Origin: a virus
Lineage: Duplodnaviria > Heunggongvirae > Uroviricota > Caudoviricetes
Reading direction: 5' to 3' (one strand)
IMG/VR virus record: IMGVR_UViG_2740892229_000018
Coordinates: 1 to 32,643 of that record
Length of the DNA stretch: 32,643 nucleotides
Each line of letters starts with the position of its first letter. Positions within the stretch are counted from its first letter, which is position 1. The translations under genes and the position numbers were made by a program. Positions 2,578 to 10,701 of this stretch are shown here, one piece after another. The notes beneath the pieces are model-generated. The model saw only the letters and a list, made by a program, of their open reading frames with translations. It was not told the DNA's origin and searched no databases.

Positions 2578-4677
2578 TTAAAGAGGTGTTATGGTAAATG
2601 TTACATTTGTCTGGCTTGCACCAAGTGTTACTTCCAAATTCCCACCACTAACGCTGATAGAGGTTATCGAAATTCCAGAGCCACCATAGACAACCTGATT
2701 AGCGGTGTTTACAGAAAGCGTAGAACCATCATAGCTGAACGTAACCCCGTCAGCATAAGATTGATAGTTATTGACGCGTATTTTAAAAATCTCCCTATAA
2801 ACTGACGCGGCTCCTAAAAAACTAGGGAATGCGCCATTGATTTCTGTCAGTGGGATTTGGAAAGTTTTCCCAGGTCCAGAAAATCCCTTTTTGTGTTGGG
2901 ATACTCTGAATGTCTCATAGGAACCAGTTGACAGTAACTGCCCTCTATATGCTGATTCTTTATGAAATGCTTGTACTGACTCCGCATAATTTACGACACC
3001 TCTACCAACCCTTCCTGTGTCAATTTCTAATGTTGAACCAGTATCCACTAAAGATGCCGGGAAGTTAAATGTGGCACCATTCCAGAAGGTTATTCTGGGA
3101 ACGGTGATGTGGGTATTTACACCTGTAATTGTAAATAAGCGTTGGCGTTGTGTGCGTAGAGACAGGTTCAAAACAGCCGACGCTCCTCCGCTAGCCAGTA
3201 TCACTGCATTTGTAGTATCTATAGTGTCGTAGCAGTTGAAGGTCAGCGCTGCCGAACCAGCTACCATATTTATGTACGCGTTCGCTGACGGTGACGGACT
3301 CTCCGCACCAATATCACCAGCAACGTCACACTCTGAAAAATAATAAGATGAACCACCAGAAACACTACCTGCGTTATCGCATGCCGTTGATTGAAAGTTT
3401 ATGTACTGGCATCTTTCCATATGCCATCCATCTAACTCAGCGCCGGCCACATAGCAGCTGCTTATATGTAGACTTGTTGCTGCTTGGTTAACTGCTGCTG
3501 CTGGCGTCCCGCCTGTAGAGGTAAAGCGTGCTGCGTCATAAAAGACACCGTGAGATGTATTCTCAGAGAATCGGCATAAGGTAAGCCCACCTAACCAACC
3601 GCTTTTAACCCACAGACCATGTTTACAACCTCTGGTTCTCACTTTCTCAATGGAGTAGCCAACAACCTGCGGCATATAAATACCAACAGGTCGGTTGTCA
3701 GATGGCGCTAAATGACAGTCAATATATCCACCACTGAATGTCCAGTATCGGCAGATATCATTTCCGCCGATAAGGAAGACGCAGTTAACATCGCCTTCTA
3801 CGTAAGCTCCTTGCGTGGGAATGTATGCATCAAGTCCAGTAGTGGTAGTTGATGTTTTAACAATTGTAGATTCGCCGAGATTTACCGACCAATAGTCAGT
3901 AGCCTGCAATAAAACAGGTTGGTCTATAAGATAGCCACGACCTTTTTCGTCAGGTGTTTTAATCTTACCAAGAGAATCGAACATGTTCTGGAATGCAGCG
4001 GATGAGGAGGTTGCTCCAGACGGTAAAGAGCCATCATCCTGAACTTCAAAGGACACTGCGCCGAAGTCATCTACAGTTACATTTTCTTTATTTACCCGCT
4101 CCCAGTACCACATGGATGACACCACAGCGATTATGCCGCCATCATCGGATGGAATATTAGACATTCCAACTGTAGAGCGGGCAATAAATTCTCCACCACC
4201 TGTACGACCTCCCGAGTAGTAAGATGCCAGAAGAATTCTCTGACCTCCTACTTCTGGAACAATGGTTCGTAGTTCATCAAAAGAATCTACCTGACCGATT
4301 AACTTAAATCCATCAACGCCAGAAAGACGCTTCTCAAATTGGTCAGGGTCGTACTTCAACACATTAGGGAAATAGAACTGCTGCGCCCCATATGCATCGT
4401 ACACAGCCATAGAATGGCCTTGCCCGGTAACGAATTTGGCAATCTGTCCGTTATATACCGGATAACCAGCAGCGTTAATGATGATTGGTTGAGAAACAGG
4501 AACGTGAGAACCGTCTTCGTTCTCTACATAAACCTGAATCCGGTTTTCAGGATTTACCGGATCCGTGTCAATTTTACCGATATAAATTTCGCCATTGGCA
4601 ACTGCTTTAAAAGAACGCGCCATAGTGAAGAGTTGCGAAGGCATCGATACGATCACATTGGCTGTAATGTCTGTCAT
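2578..4677 (-). CDS. tailspike protein with P22 gp9-like N-terminal head-binding domain and a divergent receptor-binding domain
   Basis: 699 aa; N-terminus [29 protein letters not shown]...[10 protein letters not shown] matches the conserved P22 tailspike head-binding domain from memory; the remaining ~580 aa do not resemble the P22 sequence I recall; GGAG RBS 6 nt upstream. Confidence 0.85.
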
Positions 4678-4777: not shown

Positions 4778-5707
4778 TCAGTAGTTATGTACTGAAGGAG
4801 GCAATTCTTTATTCTTAAGTCTCATCCATGCGGAAAGATTCGTTGGTCCGTCTGGCTCATTAATATCAACATCTCGTGTGTGGTTTATTAAAACGTCTCT
4901 CGCCATTCCGATAACATACGAGAACTCATGACCATAGTCGTAGCATCTGCCGGAATAGTTCGATTGAATTTGTTTTAATGCCGGATACAGTTCGCGGAAT
5001 AATGCCTGTGAGCGGTTGGCATAATCCCATAACCATACAAGGCTGTTTGCTTCTTTTGCAGAAAGCTCGTTGGTTTTCTTCTCTTGTTTGCCGATTAACT
5101 CGCCTTCAAGCGGAACGCGAGCTGCAAGTGACAGAGCTTCGGTAAACTGCTCCTCGCTGATTTCTTTGTATGAACACCCAAAATGGGATTTCAGTGATGA
5201 CCACATGGTGATCATCGCCTTAGCCTGTTTTTCTTTTGGCAGAGACTGACCGCGACTCATGACGAGTTGTTTAATGGCTTCCTGCTGTTCAGTGGTGATT
5301 TTACCCGGCAACGCCTTTTTAGCTTTGCGTGGGTTAACTACATGGCCTTTAGTCCAGTACTCGTATAGCACATCGTCACACTCTTCTTGATACTGGATTA
5401 CATTGTCGCGGATTTCAGGGCGGACTTTGTTAGGGCTGATGGTTTGCAGCCAGCCAGCAAGTTTGCGAAGTGCCAAACAAATAATCTCACGGCACTGTTC
5501 ATCACCAGGAAGCTGCATTGTGATTTTCACAATGGAGGTTTTAAACCGTTGCTTTATTTTCGTAAACTGTGAAGCCCAATCCATACCCATGCCTTCAACG
5601 ATAGGTTTCATTGGGGTGTACGGCTCACCGTTGTGATTGACGACATAAAGCTCTGCGCCGTGGAATGGCACGTTGATAGTAGATACCGCTGTTGCTATAC
5701 TTTTCAT
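4778..5707 (-). CDS. ant: antirepressor Ant (immI region)
   Basis: Sits directly downstream of arc on the same strand, as in P22 immI. ATG at 5707 ([12 protein letters not shown]...) preferred over the track's upstream TTG at 5773. Confidence 0.7.
5672..5700 (+). promoter_or_regulatory. Psar-like promoter antisense to the ant start
   Basis: TTGATA (5672-5677), exact 17-bp spacer, TATACT (5695-5700) on the plus strand; predicted start lies at about the ant start codon. Confidence 0.45.
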
Positions 5708-5775
5708 GTCAATATTTCCTAATCCGATTTGTTGATACCGAAGCCCTGACTGTTCCAGCAGTTGGGGCTTCAACT
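5706..5775 (+). ncRNA. sar: candidate sar-like antisense RNA covering the ant RBS and the arc-ant spacer
   Basis: Transcript from the Psar-like promoter would run about 70 nt to a 7-bp hairpin gaagccc(5740-5746)/gggcttc(5765-5771); matches the size and position of P22 sar RNA; the U-tract is weak. Confidence 0.4.
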
Positions 5776-5937
5776 TTACGCGCCAATGCGCCCTTCCTTC
5801 TTAAAGCTTTCCATTACTCTCTGATAAATCTCAGAGTTAACAGACCGACCATTCTCTTCCGCCACCTTGCGTACCAAATCCAATACTTCTTTAGGCCACC
5901 GCAAATTGAACTGCGGCATCTTGCTCATTCCTTTCAT
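5776..5937 (-). CDS. arc: Arc repressor (ribbon-helix-helix)
   Basis: 53-aa product [53 protein letters not shown], essentially the P22 Arc sequence as I remember it. Confidence 0.93.
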
Positions 5938-6027: not shown

Positions 6028-6279
6028 ATGGCTAGAGATGATCCGCACTTTAACTTCCGTATGCCTATGGAAGTAAGGGAGAAATTAAAATTCAGGGCGG
6101 AGGCGAATGGGAGATCAATGAACTCCGAGTTGTTACAAATCGTCCAAGATGCTCTATCAAAACCATCGCCTGTGACTGGATATCGTGACGATGCAGAACG
6201 ACTCGCTGATGAGCAGTCAGATCTTGTTAAGAAGATGGTGTTTGATACGCTGAAGGATTTGTACAAAAAAACCACCTGA
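6028..6279 (+). CDS. mnt: Mnt repressor
   Basis: 83-aa product MARDDPHFNFRMPMEVREKLKFRAEANGRSMNSELLQIVQDAL... near-identical to P22 Mnt from memory. Confidence 0.93.
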   Translation: MARDDPHFNFRMPMEVREKLKFRAEANGRSMNSELLQIVQDALSKPSPVTGYRDDAERLADEQSDLVKKMVFDTLKDLYKKTT

Positions 6280-6378
6280 CGGTGAGTTAATTTTTGCATT
6301 TACCTGGGCCATATTGACTACTTATAAAATGAGATCAATATTTAATCGCCCAATAACGGGTGTATGTTGAGGTATATC

Positions 6379-6558
6379 ATGGCGAAAAAACCAGGTGAAA
6401 ACACAGGGAAAAACGGCGGAATATACCAAGAAGTTGGCCCACGCGGCGGTAAGAAAGACAATTTTGCCACCGTCAAGGACAACGAAAGGCTTCCACCAAC
6501 AACAAAGCCAGGTCATGGCTGGGTATTGGATAAGCGAACTCCAGACAGCAAAAAGTAA
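6379..6558 (+). CDS. small conserved protein, possibly YjzC-like; function unknown
   Basis: 59 aa from ATG 6379 (GAGG 8 nt upstream; the track's earlier ATG at 6364 lacks an RBS). Motif KPGE..NGGIYQEVGPRGG...ERLPPTT..GHGWVL resembles the YjzC-like small-protein family as I recall it. Confidence 0.45.
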   Translation: MAKKPGENTGKNGGIYQEVGPRGGKKDNFATVKDNERLPPTTKPGHGWVLDKRTPDSKK

Positions 6559-6563
6559 TAATC

Positions 6564-6588
6564 AAGCCGGGTCACTCCGGCTTTTTGA
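6564..6588. terminator. hairpin with T-run between the convergent cargo genes
   Basis: agccgg(6565-6570)/ccggct(6577-6582) followed by TTTTT on the plus strand; overlaps the last codons of the minus-strand 121-aa gene. Confidence 0.45.
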
Positions 6589-6937
6589 TATGTCGCTCGC
6601 AGAACTCAACAAGCCTGCTCATTAAGTAGCAGTAAGTCTCGTTGGCTCTTCCTGGTTCAACATCAACACCTACCCTTGAGCAGATATCGAATGCCATGTG
6701 AGCGCACTCATGGGCAATAGTAGATAGTTTGCCATTGAACACGCCTATCACATGCAAAACACCATTCTCGCTACTCATTGTATGAGACGCTCCGTTGGCG
6801 TCCGAGTCATGCACGTCAACGCCAAGTTTTTGATGCAGGCGTTGCCATTCTGGAAAGTCTCTACAAAACACAATTGTACCGCTCTCAAAGAGCGGTACGA
6901 GCATCTTTGGTACGTTTCCAATGTTAACTTTTTTCAT
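6572..6937 (-). CDS. hypothetical 121-aa protein with HExxH motif (putative minimal zincin-like metallopeptidase)
   Basis: MKKVNIGN... contains H76-E77-C-A-H80 with E94/E100 downstream; divergently transcribed from the lipoprotein gene; sits where P22 carries sieA. Function inferred from the motif only. Confidence 0.5.
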   Translation of the reverse strand: MKKVNIGNVPKMLVPLFESGTIVFCRDFPEWQRLHQKLGVDVHDSDANGASHTMSSENGVLHVIGVFNGKLSTIAHECAHMAFDICSRVGVDVEPGRANETYCYLMSRLVEFCERHIKKPE

Positions 6938-6971
6938 GGTATCCTGCGCAAAACTAAGGAGAGTTAATTAT

Positions 6972-7457
6972 ATGAAAAAATCACTGTTAATTATCCCGCT
7001 TCTGCTGGCTGGGTGCGCAAAAGTAAGCGACTATCAGGCAAGTTGCGAGCAACGCTATCCAAAGCTTAGCGATATGGCTAATTGCCTTGATGCCAGCTTG
7101 AAGAACGACTCTCGCATGGCATCAGCACCAACACCTAAGCTGTATGTCCTTGCTGCGAAGATGCTCGGGCAAGGTGTCGATGAAGGCAAGATAAGTGACA
7201 CACAGGCAAGACTTGAACTTCAGAATCTTTATGTTCAATTACAAAGCCAAGAACAAGCACAACAAATAGCACAAAGCCAAGCATTCCAGCAGGCTTTATT
7301 GAATTATCAGGCTGTAAACACAATGCAAGCGATCGAGCAAAAAGCGCGCCAGCCTGTTATAACTCAACCTTACCCAACACGCGTTGACACATATACAAAC
7401 TGCAATTCAGGATTTGGAAACACGGTAACATGCAACAGTAGCAGTAATATCAGGTAG
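6972..7457 (+). CDS. putative lipoprotein with Gln-rich coiled-coil segment
   Basis: MKKSLLIIPLLLAGC has a signal peptide and lipobox (LAGC); AAGGAG RBS 8 nt upstream of ATG 6972; central segment QNLYVQLQSQEQAQQIAQSQAFQQALLNYQ. Confidence 0.65.
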   Translation: MKKSLLIIPLLLAGCAKVSDYQASCEQRYPKLSDMANCLDASLKNDSRMASAPTPKLYVLAAKMLGQGVDEGKISDTQARLELQNLYVQLQSQEQAQQIAQSQAFQQALLNYQAVNTMQAIEQKARQPVITQPYPTRVDTYTNCNSGFGNTVTCNSSSNIR

Positions 7458-7471
7458 TTATATCTTATCTT

Positions 7472-9352
7472 TTATTGCTGTTCTGCTGTAATTTGGCTTG
7501 AAAGTATAGGGCGTATCGCATTTGCAGCATTATTTAGCGCTCTTTCATAGGCTGGTGTTCCTGCTTTGGTGTTTGCCAGACGTAAGAGAGCATTCCTTGC
7601 TGCTTTGGACTCATACAAGCGCATCATTGCACCGAAACCAGCCTCAAGCCCCATTGATACGCCAAGAGTCGCAGTTGCGCCAATCGTCCTTATCCTGTTG
7701 GCTTGCGATTGCCCCGTCTGAGTTACTACATTTGCGGTGTCTGACCTTGCTGTTTGCTGTAGAACTTCATGAAGAGCATCAAGCTCTTTCATGTGCTTTC
7801 CTGAAAAAATAGTGTTGTAAATTTCACCGCCTGACTGAGATTTCAGCTTATTAACTTCAGTGATGAACTTGGCTGGAGAGTCACCGGCCTTTTCCGCTAT
7901 TTTGCTGACGTAAGCTGCACGCATAGCATCTTTCCCTTTATCATCCAGTGCGCTCCAGATTCGTTTCACGTCAGATGGTTTTCTGCTTAATACAACAGTA
8001 TTTATAAGTTCAGGACTGGCTTCACTGCTTGCCTTGTTGAGCTTGTTAGCAATGTTTTTATTAAGCACCTTATTATAAACGTTTGCATAATCGGAATTTG
8101 CTTTAAGGTATTTTGCTGCGTCTGACGCACCGAGGTTTTTTGCAACTGCGTTACGAAGGTCTTTTGACATTGCATTCTCTACCATATTGGTAGCTGCTTT
8201 TGCCTGGTTGGGGAAGACCATAGCATCTCCCTGAACATTAGATCTAAATGCTGTTCTGTGCTGACGCAAGAGATCAAACGTAACATCCAAATCAGTTGCA
8301 GGGTTTGCTAATTCTTCACGTAGGTTACGCAAGGATGTAAGCAGGCTTTGATTGGCTGAAGTCCCAAGCCGTTCCTGTCTTGCGATCGCTGTATTCAGAG
8401 CATTCATGGTATTTGTGGTATCAACTGCGGCATTACCCATTTTATTGGTGACGTCATTGATAACAGCGCCAGCGGCATCCTTCCGCCCCCTTAACGTGGT
8501 GGTAAGAGATTTCACCACATCATCAGGGTTGTACTCACCAAAACGGTCAAAATAATTACTTACCAGCTTACTACGCGTTGCATATTGCTCCGCTCGCTTT
8601 GAGCCTGTCCCGAGCAAAGCCCCCTCGGCATCCTGAGTTAGGCCGCGAGTGAAAGCATTTTTCGGCGGGATAACATCAGATGTCATTGGTGTCACGCCCA
8701 TCGATTCTGATGTGGCAATTTTCTTCGCCACTTCTGGCGCAATATCACCTTTTATAGCCGTTATTCCACGCCCTATTCCCTTTGCTGCTGCGGAAAGAAC
8801 ACCCTGAGTGGCAAGGTTAACTCCGGCATTTTTAGCTGCATTTTGTGCGAAATCGCCTTTCTGATTTGCGGCCTCTGCCAGTGATCCAATAGCCATGCTT
8901 CCTGCCGTTCCAACTCCTGGAACTAAATACCCACCAATTGTTTCACCGGCTTGCGCGTAGGGGTCTGTCGGTCGATCGACAGGGCGATAAACATCATCCA
9001 AAACCTTGGGGCCACCAAGCCCCTGACTGATTGCATTAATCAGACTTGCGCCACCCTGCAATACGTCAAATGGTATGTTTACCAGACCACGACCAGCCTG
9101 TTCTGCAATTTGCCCTGCACTTTGACCACCAGTGAGCCAATCGCCAGCTTGTTGCATCAATGATGGTTCTTCTTTCTGCTGCTGAGGTGGAGGGTATGCT
9201 GCATAAAACTGATCTCTTGCTTCAGCCCATTTGTCACCAGCCTTAGGGGCAACAACCTCATCAAAATATTGCGCTTGAGCCTGTGCTTTCTGTTCTTCAG
9301 TTAACGCCTGATACTGTGGAGAAGCGATAACATCTTTCCATGCTTTAGCCAT
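7472..9352 (-). CDS. DNA-ejection (injection) protein, P22 gp16-like
   Basis: 626 aa, last of three consecutive ejection-protein genes between tail needle and immI, as in P22; size close to P22 gp16. Confidence 0.7.
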
Positions 9353-10701
9353 TAATCACCCCATAAAGACGAGAAACCGGACTTATTGCTGTCGCTTCCT
9401 GATTTTCGCTCACTAACATATGTGTCATAACCTGATGAACTATATCCCATTGATTCAGCCTCCCTTGCTGCAACCTTTTGAAATACAGAATATTGCGATC
9501 GGATTTCAGATAACTGTTTTCTGACGACCTCTTCAGGCTGTGTTATATCGAGTTTCGCGATAAGGTTTTCCAGTTTTTGTCCTTCAGCATTGGAGAGGCT
9601 ACCCATACCTCGCATAGTCTGCACGTTCTGGACAAACGCACCCGACTTTAATTCTTCTATCGCATTACGGTTTGCAAGCCCTTCAGCACTTGTGAAGCCA
9701 TCTATATTTCTTCCTTCGAAGCGACCGATACCTTCAAGCTCCTTCTTACCAAGCAAAGAATCTATTTTCTCTATCCCTCGCTCACCAGTAATCAACGCAT
9801 TGTTGTAATTATTGTTGCCATCAAGCCATCTCTTAGCCTGAGACATTCTGGCTGACGTTGCAGCTTTACCGGTTAGCGGATCAATTCCCGTCGCTGCTAT
9901 CTGTGAGTTAAGAGACAAAACATCCATATCCTGAAGTTGTCCTGCTCTTTCAAGGGCCGCCTGTGACTGCTTAAACACATACTTGTCGTGATTCAGTCTT
10001 GCCATTTGAGCCTTATAGGAAAGATCCTGCCCCCTAATAGCCCTCGCATTCGTCATGTCATTATTGCGAATGGTTTCGTTAATTCTTTGCTGCTCCTGCT
10101 GGCGACCAACCATCTTGTCCTGAACAGCAAACGCCTTTTCTGGTCCAAGCGCACCGAGAGACATAGTAGTCAGCATGTGTGATAGCTGCTCTGGATTCTG
10201 GATACCTGTCTGAATCATCCAGTCAGCATTAGCACCAACGCGATTTAACCTGTCCTTGTTATCAGTAATGAATTTACTGTAGGCTTCCGGTCCCTGAGAA
10301 AGAGCGACGTTAGCCCTCATGGCTAAATCGCCCATATCGTTGCGTTGCTGCTCATTAAGACCGGAAAACGCCTGTTGTGCCTGTGCAACAAACGCTGGAT
10401 TTTCCTGGGCAAACTTAAATAGTCCCGATGGATCACCAGAAGCCCATGCATCAGCGTGAACCTTATTGAACGCACTAATAGCTTTCTGTTGCTGTTCCTG
10501 ATTGTAAATATCAGCAACTCCAGCCAGACCACGTAACGCGGTCAGACCAACGTTATTTGCACCTGAGCGAGCCAGTTCATTGTTTTCGCGGATCAGACCA
10601 AGCGTTGCGTTAATGTCGCTTGCCTTTGGCGCATTCTCATTTTGCGTACCGATGCCAGCCAGAAAACCACCAGAATTAATACCCTGTTGCCACGTAGCCA
10701 T
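9352..10701 (-). CDS. DNA-ejection protein, P22 gp20-like
   Basis: 449 aa; assigned by position and size in the P22 ejection-protein block. Confidence 0.65.

Follow-up and report, generated by a model that had tools for sequence, protein, structure and literature searches.

A lipoprotein cassette behind the conserved PsieA region of a P22-like E. coli prophage is a candidate superinfection-exclusion gene, separate from the neighbouring 59a-hkcC pair

The 1192-bp interval between mnt and a gp16-like gene in a P22-like E. coli prophage carries three small genes, and the question it raises is whether these act as one module, as an earlier note on this DNA had proposed, and which of them might protect a lysogen against superinfecting phages. 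The prophage is integrated at tRNA-Arg, and the window (the whole stretch of DNA analysed) is 32,643 nucleotides long. The interval, 6280-7471, is bounded by the stop of mnt (6279) and that of the gp16-like gene (7472). The features to which we refer are as follows.

6028-6279, plus strand: mnt, the maintenance repressor and left boundary (Pfam Arc, E = 5e-30; Repressor_Mnt, E = 1e-17; aligns with the annotated P22 mnt)
6314-6342, plus strand: sigma-70-like promoter upstream of 59a, TTGACT-17 nt-AATATT, from a consensus scan and putatively active
6379-6558, plus strand: 59a (P22 orf59a, HK620 HkcD), encoding a 59-aa YjzC-like protein, with 98% nucleotide identity to P22 orf59a
6564-6583, terminator-like on both strands: hairpin common to the converging 59a and hkcC (P22 t_mnt, HK620 tORF59A)
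6572-6937, minus strand (that of the late operon): hkcC, encoding a 121-aa putative minimal zincin-like protein (SprT-like fold), the DNA being 97.7% identical to HK620, where hkcC is annotated
6883-6961, plus strand: conserved PsieA region ending in the AAGGAG ribosome-binding site (6956-6961), with 77 of 79 bases identical to P22
6972-7457, plus strand: gene for a 161-aa lipoprotein in the sieA slot (phrog_6067, E = 3e-109, unknown function)
7436-7487, no strand assigned: AU-rich imperfect inverted repeat over the stop codons of the lipoprotein gene and gene 16, not a canonical terminator
7472-9352, minus strand: gene for a gene 16-like ejection protein, the right boundary (626-aa ORF, aligns to P22 gp16)

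Most of the anatomy described earlier is borne out. There are indeed three open reading frames, of 59 (+), 121 (-) and 161 (+) residues. The 121-aa protein contains an HExxH motif (HECAH, residues 76-80), the 161-aa product opens with a classical lipoprotein signal, the spacer between the divergent genes is exactly 34 bp (6938-6971), and the 59-aa and 121-aa frames converge on a GC-rich hairpin. The immunity switch said to adjoin the interval does so, and this immI region is complete, with Mnt, Arc, Ant and sar RNA (Rfam RF00262, E = 4e-13). On the other side, the gene 16 counterpart is called a 'DNA transfer protein' by PGAP in a genome with a 99.9% identical copy of 6280-7471.

The claim that three unrelated genes stand in place of sieA has to be corrected, as only the lipoprotein gene does; P22 has intact orf59a and hkcC frames. 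Positions 6286-6965 of the window are 97.9% identical to P22, and 6280-6965 are 97.7-98.0% identical to HK620 and several Salmonella P22-like phages. In the annotations of P22 and HK620, orf59a, the terminators, PsieA, sieA and hkcB/hkcC occupy corresponding places, with 59a/orf59a and hkcC adjoining sieA in P22 and hkcB in HK620. The divergence junction is directly 3' of AAGGAG, and no foreign-DNA signature was seen in the GC content. The interval corresponds to that part of the known 'ant moron' which lies nearest to gene 16, and it holds two independent units. One of these, the convergent 59a-hkcC pair, would be an essentially unchanged inheritance from the P22/HK620 lineage. The other would be a single-gene swap cassette, placed directly behind the conserved PsieA promoter and ribosome-binding site, which is sieA in P22 and the 161-aa lipoprotein gene here.

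A single joint defence or immunity module made of all three genes is extremely unlikely on this evidence. The genes are adjacent, two of them diverge across the 34-bp spacer and two converge on one hairpin, and all three are kept together in 19 E. coli genomes, as a joint module would have it. However, they assort independently across phages. Some part of the interval is matched in 298 of 5426 complete E. coli genomes and the hkcC/PsieA stretch in 133, the 19 being those that match the whole. The lipoprotein occurs without 59a/hkcC in P22-like phages of eight genera (Yersinia, Morganella, Serratia, Tatumella, Providencia, Pectobacterium, Klebsiella and Proteus), and the 59a-hkcC pair is carried by P22, HK620 and siphovirus-like prophages that lack the lipoprotein, and accompanies 11 other slot cassettes. 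The 34-bp spacer, moreover, is simply the PsieA/RBS region common to P22.

Within the first unit, 59a matches phrog_3202 (E = 7e-31) and has homologues of 59-61 aa, 64-93% identical, in six other phage contexts. Upstream of homologues in prophages of Rosenbergiella, Xenorhabdus, Proteus and Klebsiella, both hexamers of its promoter (-35 and -10) and the distance between them are kept, although the intervening bases differ. Its earlier description as YjzC-like survives in a weakened form: the match to Pfam YjzC (PF14168, E = 0.0013) covers nearly the full profile (positions 8-54 of 55) and scores 19.4 bits, below the gathering threshold of 25. Similar sub-threshold matches come from two of three distant homologues. 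The protein is plausibly a distant YjzC relative, not a certified member. For 59a (6379-6558) there was no PADLOC-DB v2 match at E <= 0.01. An out-of-frame ORF at this gene is mis-called in other records, and that of Salmonella phage 22 names one a 'tubulin/FtsZ family GTPase domain protein'.

The hairpin that 59a shares with hkcC is annotated as a terminator in both P22 and HK620, and as bidirectional in the latter; the stop codon of hkcC sits in its loop. The surrounding 51 nt (6550-6600) fold at -14.5 kcal/mol (z = -3.0), and only one of 200 shuffles folds as well.

The hkcC product matches phrog_1365 (E = 2e-39), and its homologues number 552 cluster representatives at E <= 1e-3. Among 80 members, 22-73% identical to the window protein, the only invariant positions are H76, E77, H80 and E100. 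The HExxH motif with a downstream third ligand is the zincin/gluzincin pattern, and suggests a putative metal site. The AF2 model has a pLDDT of 83.5, and Foldseek against BFVD matched it to SprT-like phage proteins (E = 1e-4, TM 0.72) and to one 'Metalloprotease' (E = 4e-3); proteins named IrrE reached E = 0.08-0.13 at best. What it has in common with the SprT-like or minimal zincins is the HExxH on a helix, a conserved Glu 20 residues downstream and, as predicted, a small alpha/beta fold. No homology to the repressor-cleaving proteases ImmA/IrrE (Peptidase_M78, PF06114) was found, as neither the protein nor the 80 family members gave this Pfam match. The protein itself has no Pfam SprT-like match, and one of the 80 family members does (E = 1e-4). 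Its profiles gave nothing or weak matches only against the PDB (myroilysin, E = 0.011), one further search returned no zincin, and PADLOC-DB v2 held no match at E <= 0.1. Searches of NCBIfam and PADLOC gave no match for 59a, hkcC or the lipoprotein. We weighed and rejected an attenuator of the late transcript at a perfect 10-bp hairpin within hkcC (6876-6898); P22 has an imperfect version and distant homologues lack it, so that it is probably a by-product of the PLFESG codons.

The convergent pair recurs in unrelated prophages, where it repeatedly adjoins antirepressor genes, and the hkcC fold family also occurs in phages of many kinds, some of them outside the P22/HK620 lineage. The idea of an immunity-control element, which the earlier note had raised for the interval as a whole, fits 59a and hkcC better in view of these antirepressor neighbours. 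Against it are this wide spread of the fold family and the orientation of hkcC, which is on the late-operon strand and would be carried in sense by the late transcript (gene 16 through to the tailspike). In P22 both genes have borne the label 'unknown function' for over 20 years. A starting hypothesis for them is now at hand, in that they form a conserved convergent pair, of a small YjzC-like protein and a putative minimal zincin, that accompanies antirepressor modules.

We turn to the second unit. The PsieA annotated in P22 corresponds to 6907-6937, which overlaps the first codons of hkcC, and a simple promoter scan flagged no canonical sigma-70 site there. In P22, a chromosomal insert of sieA with 85 bp upstream of its start, including the putative PsieA, sufficed to exclude P22; SieA blocks injection, and the escape mutations are in gp16 and gp20 (PMC10883804). 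The same study found sieA in 22 of 66 P22-like phages and reported its upregulation on prophage induction (PMC10883804). In 80 related IMG/VR contigs, the slot behind PsieA is occupied by 12 unrelated single-gene families: the lipoprotein in 17 contigs, SieA in 13, a 129-aa secreted protein in 12, HkcB in eight, and others. Nearly all of the contigs (76/80) have a single slot ORF and then the end of gene 16 within 120 bp, and all of the slot products except one (79/80) have a signal peptide or a transmembrane segment.

The lipoprotein has a signal peptide with the lipobox LLAG directly before Cys15, and Ala at +2 (MKKSLLIIPLLLAG followed by CAK), which conforms to the pattern [LVI][ASTVI][GAS]C with no Asp at +2. 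Among 31 aligned homologues the lipobox Cys is invariant and the +2 residue is Ala, or Val in two members, and in none Asp. The lipobox together with this Ala predicts anchoring in the outer membrane, on its periplasmic side. After the signal peptide come a helical domain spanning roughly residues 17-98, in which Cys25 and Cys38 are conserved, then a linker rich in Gln, and finally a Cys-x(n)-Cys loop at the C-terminus; across the family, five cysteines (that of the lipobox and four others) show little or no variation. In the AF2 model, residues 21-90 have a pLDDT of 76-84, and over most of the last 60 residues the value falls below 50. There are 90 homologues across the Enterobacterales, none with a Pfam domain. 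The profile found nothing significant in the PDB, no specific fold match was found, and PADLOC-DB v2 gave no match at E <= 0.1. Homologues with a demonstrated unrelated function, which would count against the earlier defence proposal, were looked for and none was found.

In all 15 places examined outside E. coli chromosomes, which span ten other genera, the lipoprotein gene belongs to a P22-like phage and adjoins gene 16 in convergent orientation. Its start is 17-18 bp past the mnt stop in Proteus phage Brookers and two Serratia prophages, and this short gap suggests that it is there in an operon with mnt, a repressor expressed in lysogens. The gp16 encoded beside it varies widely in architecture (626-906 aa, SLT domain present or absent), which argues against a gp16-specific interaction; by eye, no link was evident in 12 contexts between its C-terminal variants and the gp16 architecture.

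Of the moron features, the gene has a promoter region like the putative P22 PsieA, and no canonical terminator after it in the window. Its stop is 14 bp from that of gene 16, the inverted repeat over the two stops is the only element in the centroid structure when 7430-7640 is folded, and no terminator-like site is present on the plus strand between 6583 and 7700. With so little space between the stops, the PsieA transcript could run past the lipoprotein stop and become antisense to the 3' end of gene 16, the active agent then being an RNA that excludes phages whose gene 16 matches. There is precedent in STnc6030 of prophage BTP1, which comes from the same interval and for which the escape mutations are antisense to the 3' end of the gene 16 homologue (PMC7067206). 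We nevertheless regard an RNA agent as very unlikely. The protein is 50-97% identical across ten or more genera, with its cysteines and lipobox invariant, which indicates constraint on the encoded protein. Nor is read-through conserved, since in Brookers and one Morganella prophage the gene is followed by a GC-rich hairpin and a run of T. The family is also combined with unrelated gene 16 sequences. Given the conserved protein and the terminators in other phages, antisense read-through is down-weighted as the main function.

The superinfection-exclusion role suggested by the earlier note thus holds up as a candidate for the lipoprotein alone, in view of its position, the PsieA region, the mnt operon elsewhere and the predicted envelope location, and not for the three-gene module. 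Our leading reading, to which we give a little short of an even chance, is that the lipoprotein is expressed in the lysogen and acts in the envelope to keep related phages from delivering their DNA. The lysogen expression, localisation and exclusion activity that we infer would be connected in the following way. The protein would be made in the lysogen from PsieA, or from Pmnt in other phages, and would then be lipidated and sorted to the outer membrane. There it would hinder the trans-envelope DNA conduit formed by the ejection proteins of a superinfecting P22-like phage, or a host envelope component that the conduit needs. If it does exclude phages, it would offer a second handle, outer-membrane or periplasmic, on the assembly of the gp7/gp20/gp16 conduit, complementing SieA.

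A function for the host rather than against phages is rather unlikely in our judgement, and deserves to be weighed. The lipoprotein would then be a lysogenic-conversion factor with a phage-unrelated benefit such as serum resistance, adhesion, envelope stress tolerance or protection from peptidoglycan toxins. Many of the E. coli genomes that carry it are from human hosts, and in a Tatumella prophage the mnt operon has a Rap1a-family gene immediately before it. Members of this family are T6SS immunity proteins, and this neighbour implies that the mnt operon carries envelope-protection cargo, not necessarily anti-phage. An outer-membrane-type lipoprotein at a moron position also recalls lambda Bor, which confers serum resistance (cited in PMC7067206). 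Set against these points, the family is confined to P22-like phages, at the SieA position, in all contexts examined, and is interchangeable with SieA behind the same promoter.

It is improbable, too, that the lipoprotein serves the lytic cycle of its own phage, either by stopping progeny from injecting into infected or lysing cells or by modulating envelope breakdown. The upregulation of sieA during induction (PMC10883804) implies that PsieA cargo is also present late in infection, and there is a weak PHROG match to an Rz-like spanin (E = 0.07). That match covers only the signal peptide (residues 5-36), however, the gene is antisense to the late operon, and elsewhere it shares an operon with mnt, whose repressor acts in lysogens.

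Returning to exclusion by the lipoprotein, we tentatively put forward a wider joint reading, as possible but on the doubtful side. The slot behind PsieA would be a hypervariable 'envelope-defence slot', with 12 or more unrelated cassettes (SieA, HkcB, the lipoprotein, the 129-aa secreted protein and tiny membrane proteins), each of which would block the podovirus ejection conduit at a different envelope layer; separately, 59a-hkcC would be a mobile accessory of antirepressor modules, made up of a protease and a small partner protein. If this were true, the lipoprotein would be the first outer-membrane-anchored inhibitor of a P22-type ejectosome. As the slot cassettes are nearly all envelope proteins, a known variable region becomes a cheaply testable panel of candidate injection blockers. 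It is worth adding that sieA is absent from two thirds of the sequenced P22-like phages, and that the lipoprotein is the commonest alternative in our sample (17/80).

The region from gene 16 to gene 9 has been described as the hypervariable 'ant moron', with 10 types in 16 genomes (PMC2629481). In the text of that paper, the lipoprotein cassette is not among the genes named, and neither the near-universal envelope nature of the slot cassettes nor the pairing of 59a with hkcC outside P22-like phages is stated. From the same interval between gene 16 and the tailspike, STnc6030 of BTP1 is a lysogen-expressed exclusion element, as the lipoprotein gene may be, and like that gene it is antisense to the late operon; it has no ORF of more than 60 aa and acts by base-pairing (PMC7067206), whereas the lipoprotein is a conserved 161-aa coding gene.

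The closest parallels by type of protein are Cor (phi80/N15/HK022) and Llp (T5), which are outer-membrane lipoproteins that exclude FhuA-dependent phages. They resemble the lipoprotein in being small and phage- or prophage-encoded, and they protect the cell from the periplasmic face of the outer membrane. However, they act on the siphovirus receptor FhuA, whereas P22-like podoviruses use O-antigen and eject their own conduit proteins. The lipoprotein has no sequence similarity to SieA, Cor or Llp; its match to Cor (phrog_1119, E = 0.092) spans residues 1-29, which are signal peptide only and do not indicate homology.

By position the nearest relative is SieA. Both are single small envelope proteins found only in P22-like prophages, encoded in a slot convergent with gene 16 in the ant moron and behind the PsieA region and its RBS, and the lipoprotein gene has the location that characterises the SieA family, between the gene 16 and gene 9 homologues of a P22-like prophage. 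As a protein it falls outside SieA types A-C on reading of its sequence, and is separate from SieA in blastp clustering. SieA crosses the inner membrane several times and carries the motif FxRYPxEAxxFNK, whereas the lipoprotein lacks this motif, has no transmembrane helix after the signal peptide, and is predicted to be in the outer membrane or periplasm, where it would be the counterpart of SieA at the inner membrane.

The prophage is P22-like (Lederbergvirus), and in the window tRNA-Arg(CCT) at 1009-1083 adjoins it. The chromosome of E. coli strain 2013C-4991 carries a copy of 6280-7471 that is 99.9% identical, flanked by yfdC, tRNA-Arg and intS; the prophage of that strain also has a family-2 glycosyltransferase gene between its integrase and tailspike. 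An earlier note described the ORFs, spacer and hairpin of this interval correctly, as judged by gene calls and folding. The 51-nt stretch surrounding the hairpin at 6564-6583 folds at -14.5 kcal/mol (z = -3.0), and the hairpin is terminator-like on either strand.

Features of the window from the tailspike gene to gene 20
2578-4677, - strand: tailspike
4778-5773, - strand: ant
5709-5775, + strand: sar RNA (Rfam E = 4e-13)
end at 5776, - strand: arc
6028-6279, + strand: mnt
6379-6558, + strand: 59-aa ORF (59a)
6564-6583, both strands: GC-rich hairpin
6572-6937, - strand: 121-aa ORF (hkcC), with HECAH at residues 76-80
6938-6971: 34-bp spacer
6972-7457, + strand: 161-aa ORF (lipoprotein), N-terminal start MKKSLLIIPLLLAGCAK
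7472-9352, - strand: gene 16
9352-10701, - strand: gene 20

The same note held that three genes together replace the sieA of P22. When 6280-7471 was used as a megablast query against phage genomes, 56 records were returned, all with a query coverage of at most 58%. Query bases 1-686 (window 6280-6965) are 97.7-98.0% identical to HK620, SE1, ST160 and others, and bases 7-686 (window 6286-6965) are 97.9% identical to P22 itself. The matching stretch is annotated as orf59a, t_mnt, PsieA and then sieA in P22-pbi, and as HkcD, the bidirectional terminator tORF59A, hkcC and then hkcB in HK620; the hkcC ORF is intact in P22. It follows from this identity and annotation that 59a and hkcC are normal P22 genes, and that the claim holds for the third gene, the lipoprotein, which is the only one to replace sieA. 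The interval is already in the literature as a variable region, the stretch from gene 16 to gene 9 being the hypervariable "ant moron" (Villafane et al. 2008, PMC2629481), as are genes 59a and hkcC. A single three-gene module is barely credible: no such unit exists, the lipoprotein being found elsewhere without 59a and hkcC, and the pair being a separate unit.

The window, P22 and HK620 are near-identical up to an AAGGAG ribosome-binding site (6956-6961) and diverge directly after it. Positions 6883-6961, identical to P22 at 77 of 79 bases, contain the annotated PsieA (window 6907-6937), which lies within the 5' end of hkcC. A chromosomal insert of sieA plus 85 bp upstream of its start codon, including the putative PsieA, excluded P22 (Leavitt et al., PMC10883804). 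The ORF following the shared ribosome-binding site was read in 80 IMG/VR contigs with hkcC, giving 12 families with no blastp similarity between them.

Cassettes in the sieA slot of the 80 contigs
17 contigs: lipoprotein
13 contigs: SieA
12 contigs: 129-aa secreted protein
8 contigs: HkcB-type (membrane anchor and coiled coil)
8 contigs: 75-aa multi-pass membrane protein
22 contigs in total: seven smaller groups

A signal peptide or transmembrane segment (maximum Kyte-Doolittle hydropathy over 15 residues of at least 1.77) is present in 79 of these 80 ORFs, and in 76 contigs the slot has a single ORF, with a long ORF on the opposite strand, gene 16, ending no more than 120 bp beyond it. Six E. 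coli chromosomes sampled by hand gave a matching picture. At this slot, then, one gene is swapped for another, and the occupant is nearly always an envelope protein; the survey suggests a larger panel of candidate exclusion proteins.

The two genes outside the slot have a distribution of their own. 59a matches phrog_3202 (E = 7e-31); its match to Pfam YjzC is below threshold (E = 0.0013). Distant hkcC homologs (43-63% identical) each have a convergent 59a homolog of 59-61 aa as their neighbour, at a distance of 13-30 bp in those measured; they occur in a metagenome contig, in siphovirus-like prophages of Klebsiella oxytoca and Rosenbergiella (within a siphovirus-type tail gene cluster), in Xenorhabdus (just upstream of a 964-aa ORF), in Proteus and in a Pasteurellaceae genome.

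Convergent hkcC/59a pairs on unrelated phage backbones (locus and its own coordinates)
L020: 5001-5563
L022: 5001-5556
L103: 5001-5580
L104: 4947-5527
L105: 4908-5563
L017: 544-1131

No 59a homolog was detectable near the hkcC homologs of 38-42% identity in Kluyvera, Citrobacter, Mixta and Atlantibacter (those read in detail lie between lysis-type and terminase-type genes), or near those of 48% and 55% in Moraxella and Arsenophonus. Antirepressor-type genes are repeated neighbours of the pair: Mnt/Arc/Ant in the window, KilA-N/P63C in Xenorhabdus, Arc-like and Bro-N in Proteus, pRha in one Klebsiella contig and, in Pasteurellaceae, a weak sub-threshold RHH match (E = 0.009). Given this recurrence and these neighbours, 59a and hkcC form a conserved, mobile pair that is associated with antirepressor modules and lies outside the sieA-slot cargo; the observations on its recurrence, convergence and antirepressor neighbours are new here. 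Upstream of 59a is a promoter-like TTGACT-17 nt-AATATT (6314-6342, +), of which the hexamers and spacing are kept in four distant contexts while the spacer sequence diverges, and which is followed by a conserved motif, GCCCAATAnCGG. This conservation suggests that 59a may be expressed independently, not merely by read-through from Pmnt. An out-of-frame ORF across 59a (6395-6625, +; products 44-86 aa) is often called by gene callers, and the "tubulin/FtsZ family GTPase domain protein" of Salmonella phage 22 is an annotation artefact, out of frame with 59a.

hkcC belongs to phrog_1365. An exhaustive profile search gave 552 cluster representatives (E <= 1e-3), mostly 110-140 aa long. In an alignment of 80 of these, which share 22-73% identity with the window protein, no residues are invariant except H76, E77, H80 and E100, that is, HExxH with a Glu 20 residues past the second His, which is the thermolysin-type spacing and "NE" context. 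AlphaFold2 predicts a β-sheet with two long helices (pLDDT 83.5; two of five models confident). Against viral models, Foldseek matched 22 small phage proteins from many hosts and phage types at E < 1e-3, and the named matches were SprT-like (E = 1e-4, TM 0.72) and "Metalloprotease" (E = 4e-3). We hypothesise that the pair might consist of a protease and a small protein that partners or regulates it. hkcC is on the strand of the late transcript, which extends from gene 16 across the ant moron as far as the tailspike (PMC2629481). In the hkcC 5' coding region, just upstream of PsieA, is a hairpin with a perfect 10-bp stem (6876-6898, - strand; GTACCGCTCTTTGAGAGCGGTAC), probably a codon by-product since P22 shows a single mismatch in it and distant homologs lack it. 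In two contexts, distant hkcC homologs have a 212-aa gene a short way downstream (L017 1330-1968 and L106 5376-6014), and the L017 product carries PF18894 (PhageMetallopep).

The lipoprotein matches phrog_6067, of unknown function (E = 3e-109); searches of Pfam, NCBIfam and PADLOC gave nothing that was significant or close to it. A large protein search found 90 relatives (47-97% identity), whose sources name the genera Escherichia, Citrobacter, Serratia, Cronobacter, Klebsiella, Pectobacterium, Yersinia, Morganella, Providencia, Tatumella and Symbiopectobacterium; no relative has a domain or meaningful name. An accession search found no paper on the family, and the SieA paper (PMC10883804) mentions lipoproteins in its references only; the cassette represents an uncharacterised family. 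The lipobox Cys15, together with Cys25, Cys38 and Cys154, is invariant, and the C-terminal loop has one more Cys, whose position the C-terminal variants share. Cys15 is followed by Ala, or by Val in two members, and never by Asp. With the family alignment, AlphaFold2 predicts a helical domain at about residues 17-98 (pLDDT 76-84 over residues 21-90), the Gln-rich and C-terminal part being unconfident.

Outside E. coli chromosomes the gene was examined in 15 places, including phages Gally and Brookers and prophages or contigs of Yersinia, Morganella (2), Serratia (2), Tatumella, Providencia, Pectobacterium and Klebsiella aerogenes. In all 15 it is the convergent neighbour of a gene 16 homolog in a P22-like phage, and in all 15 59a and hkcC are absent, from which we conclude that it is an autonomous cassette. 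In Brookers and the two Serratia prophages it starts 17-18 bp past the mnt stop codon, which implies an operon with the maintenance repressor; a remnant of this junction is kept in a Morganella prophage. In Gally, a different 139-aa lipoprotein gene (MKRIIGVVAGAILLSGC..., L003 2947-3366, late strand) replaces the 59a-hkcC pair, so that mnt and gene 16 have two adjacent lipoprotein genes between them. The Tatumella prophage has a Rap1a family gene (PF18602; L114 3604-3942) between mnt and the lipoprotein; this family comprises T6SS immunity proteins. The gene 16 homologs next to the lipoprotein at L015, L016, L114 and L117 have an N-terminal SLT (lytic transglycosylase) domain; conceivably, then, the lipoprotein could act against an ejection protein that degrades peptidoglycan.

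Expression in the lysogen is indicated both by where the gene lies and by its two alternative promoters, PsieA or Pmnt. A lysogenic-conversion role unrelated to phage is unlikely, and a part in the lytic cycle of the phage itself quite improbable. sieA is present in only 22 of 66 P22-like phages, and SieA escape mutations lie in the ejection proteins gp16 and gp20 (PMC10883804). The exclusion element that prophage BTP1 encodes in the matching interval is another one, the antisense RNA STnc6030, with escape mutations in the gene 16 3'-end region (PMC7067206). An AU-rich imperfect inverted repeat (7436-7487) spans the stop codons at which the lipoprotein gene and gene 16 converge in the window; no canonical terminator separates them, so a transcript from PsieA may run antisense into the gene 16 3' end. 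However, in Brookers and Morganella the gene has terminators on its 3' side, and the lipoprotein is strongly conserved as a protein, so that we consider an antisense-RNA role very improbable. The use of SieA's promoter, the many envelope proteins in the slot and the restriction to P22-like phages suggest instead, with a probability that we put at not quite even, that the lipoprotein would be anchored in the outer membrane facing the periplasm, and would interfere with the ejection-protein conduit or with its host envelope partner. The gp16 partners of the family are very different (626-906 aa, some with the SLT domain), which makes a conserved component a more likely target than a particular gp16. 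The lipoprotein is thus a good and cheaply testable candidate exclusion protein, a function that we infer from position only, and it would belong with the lysogen-expressed envelope cassettes of the P22 ant moron.
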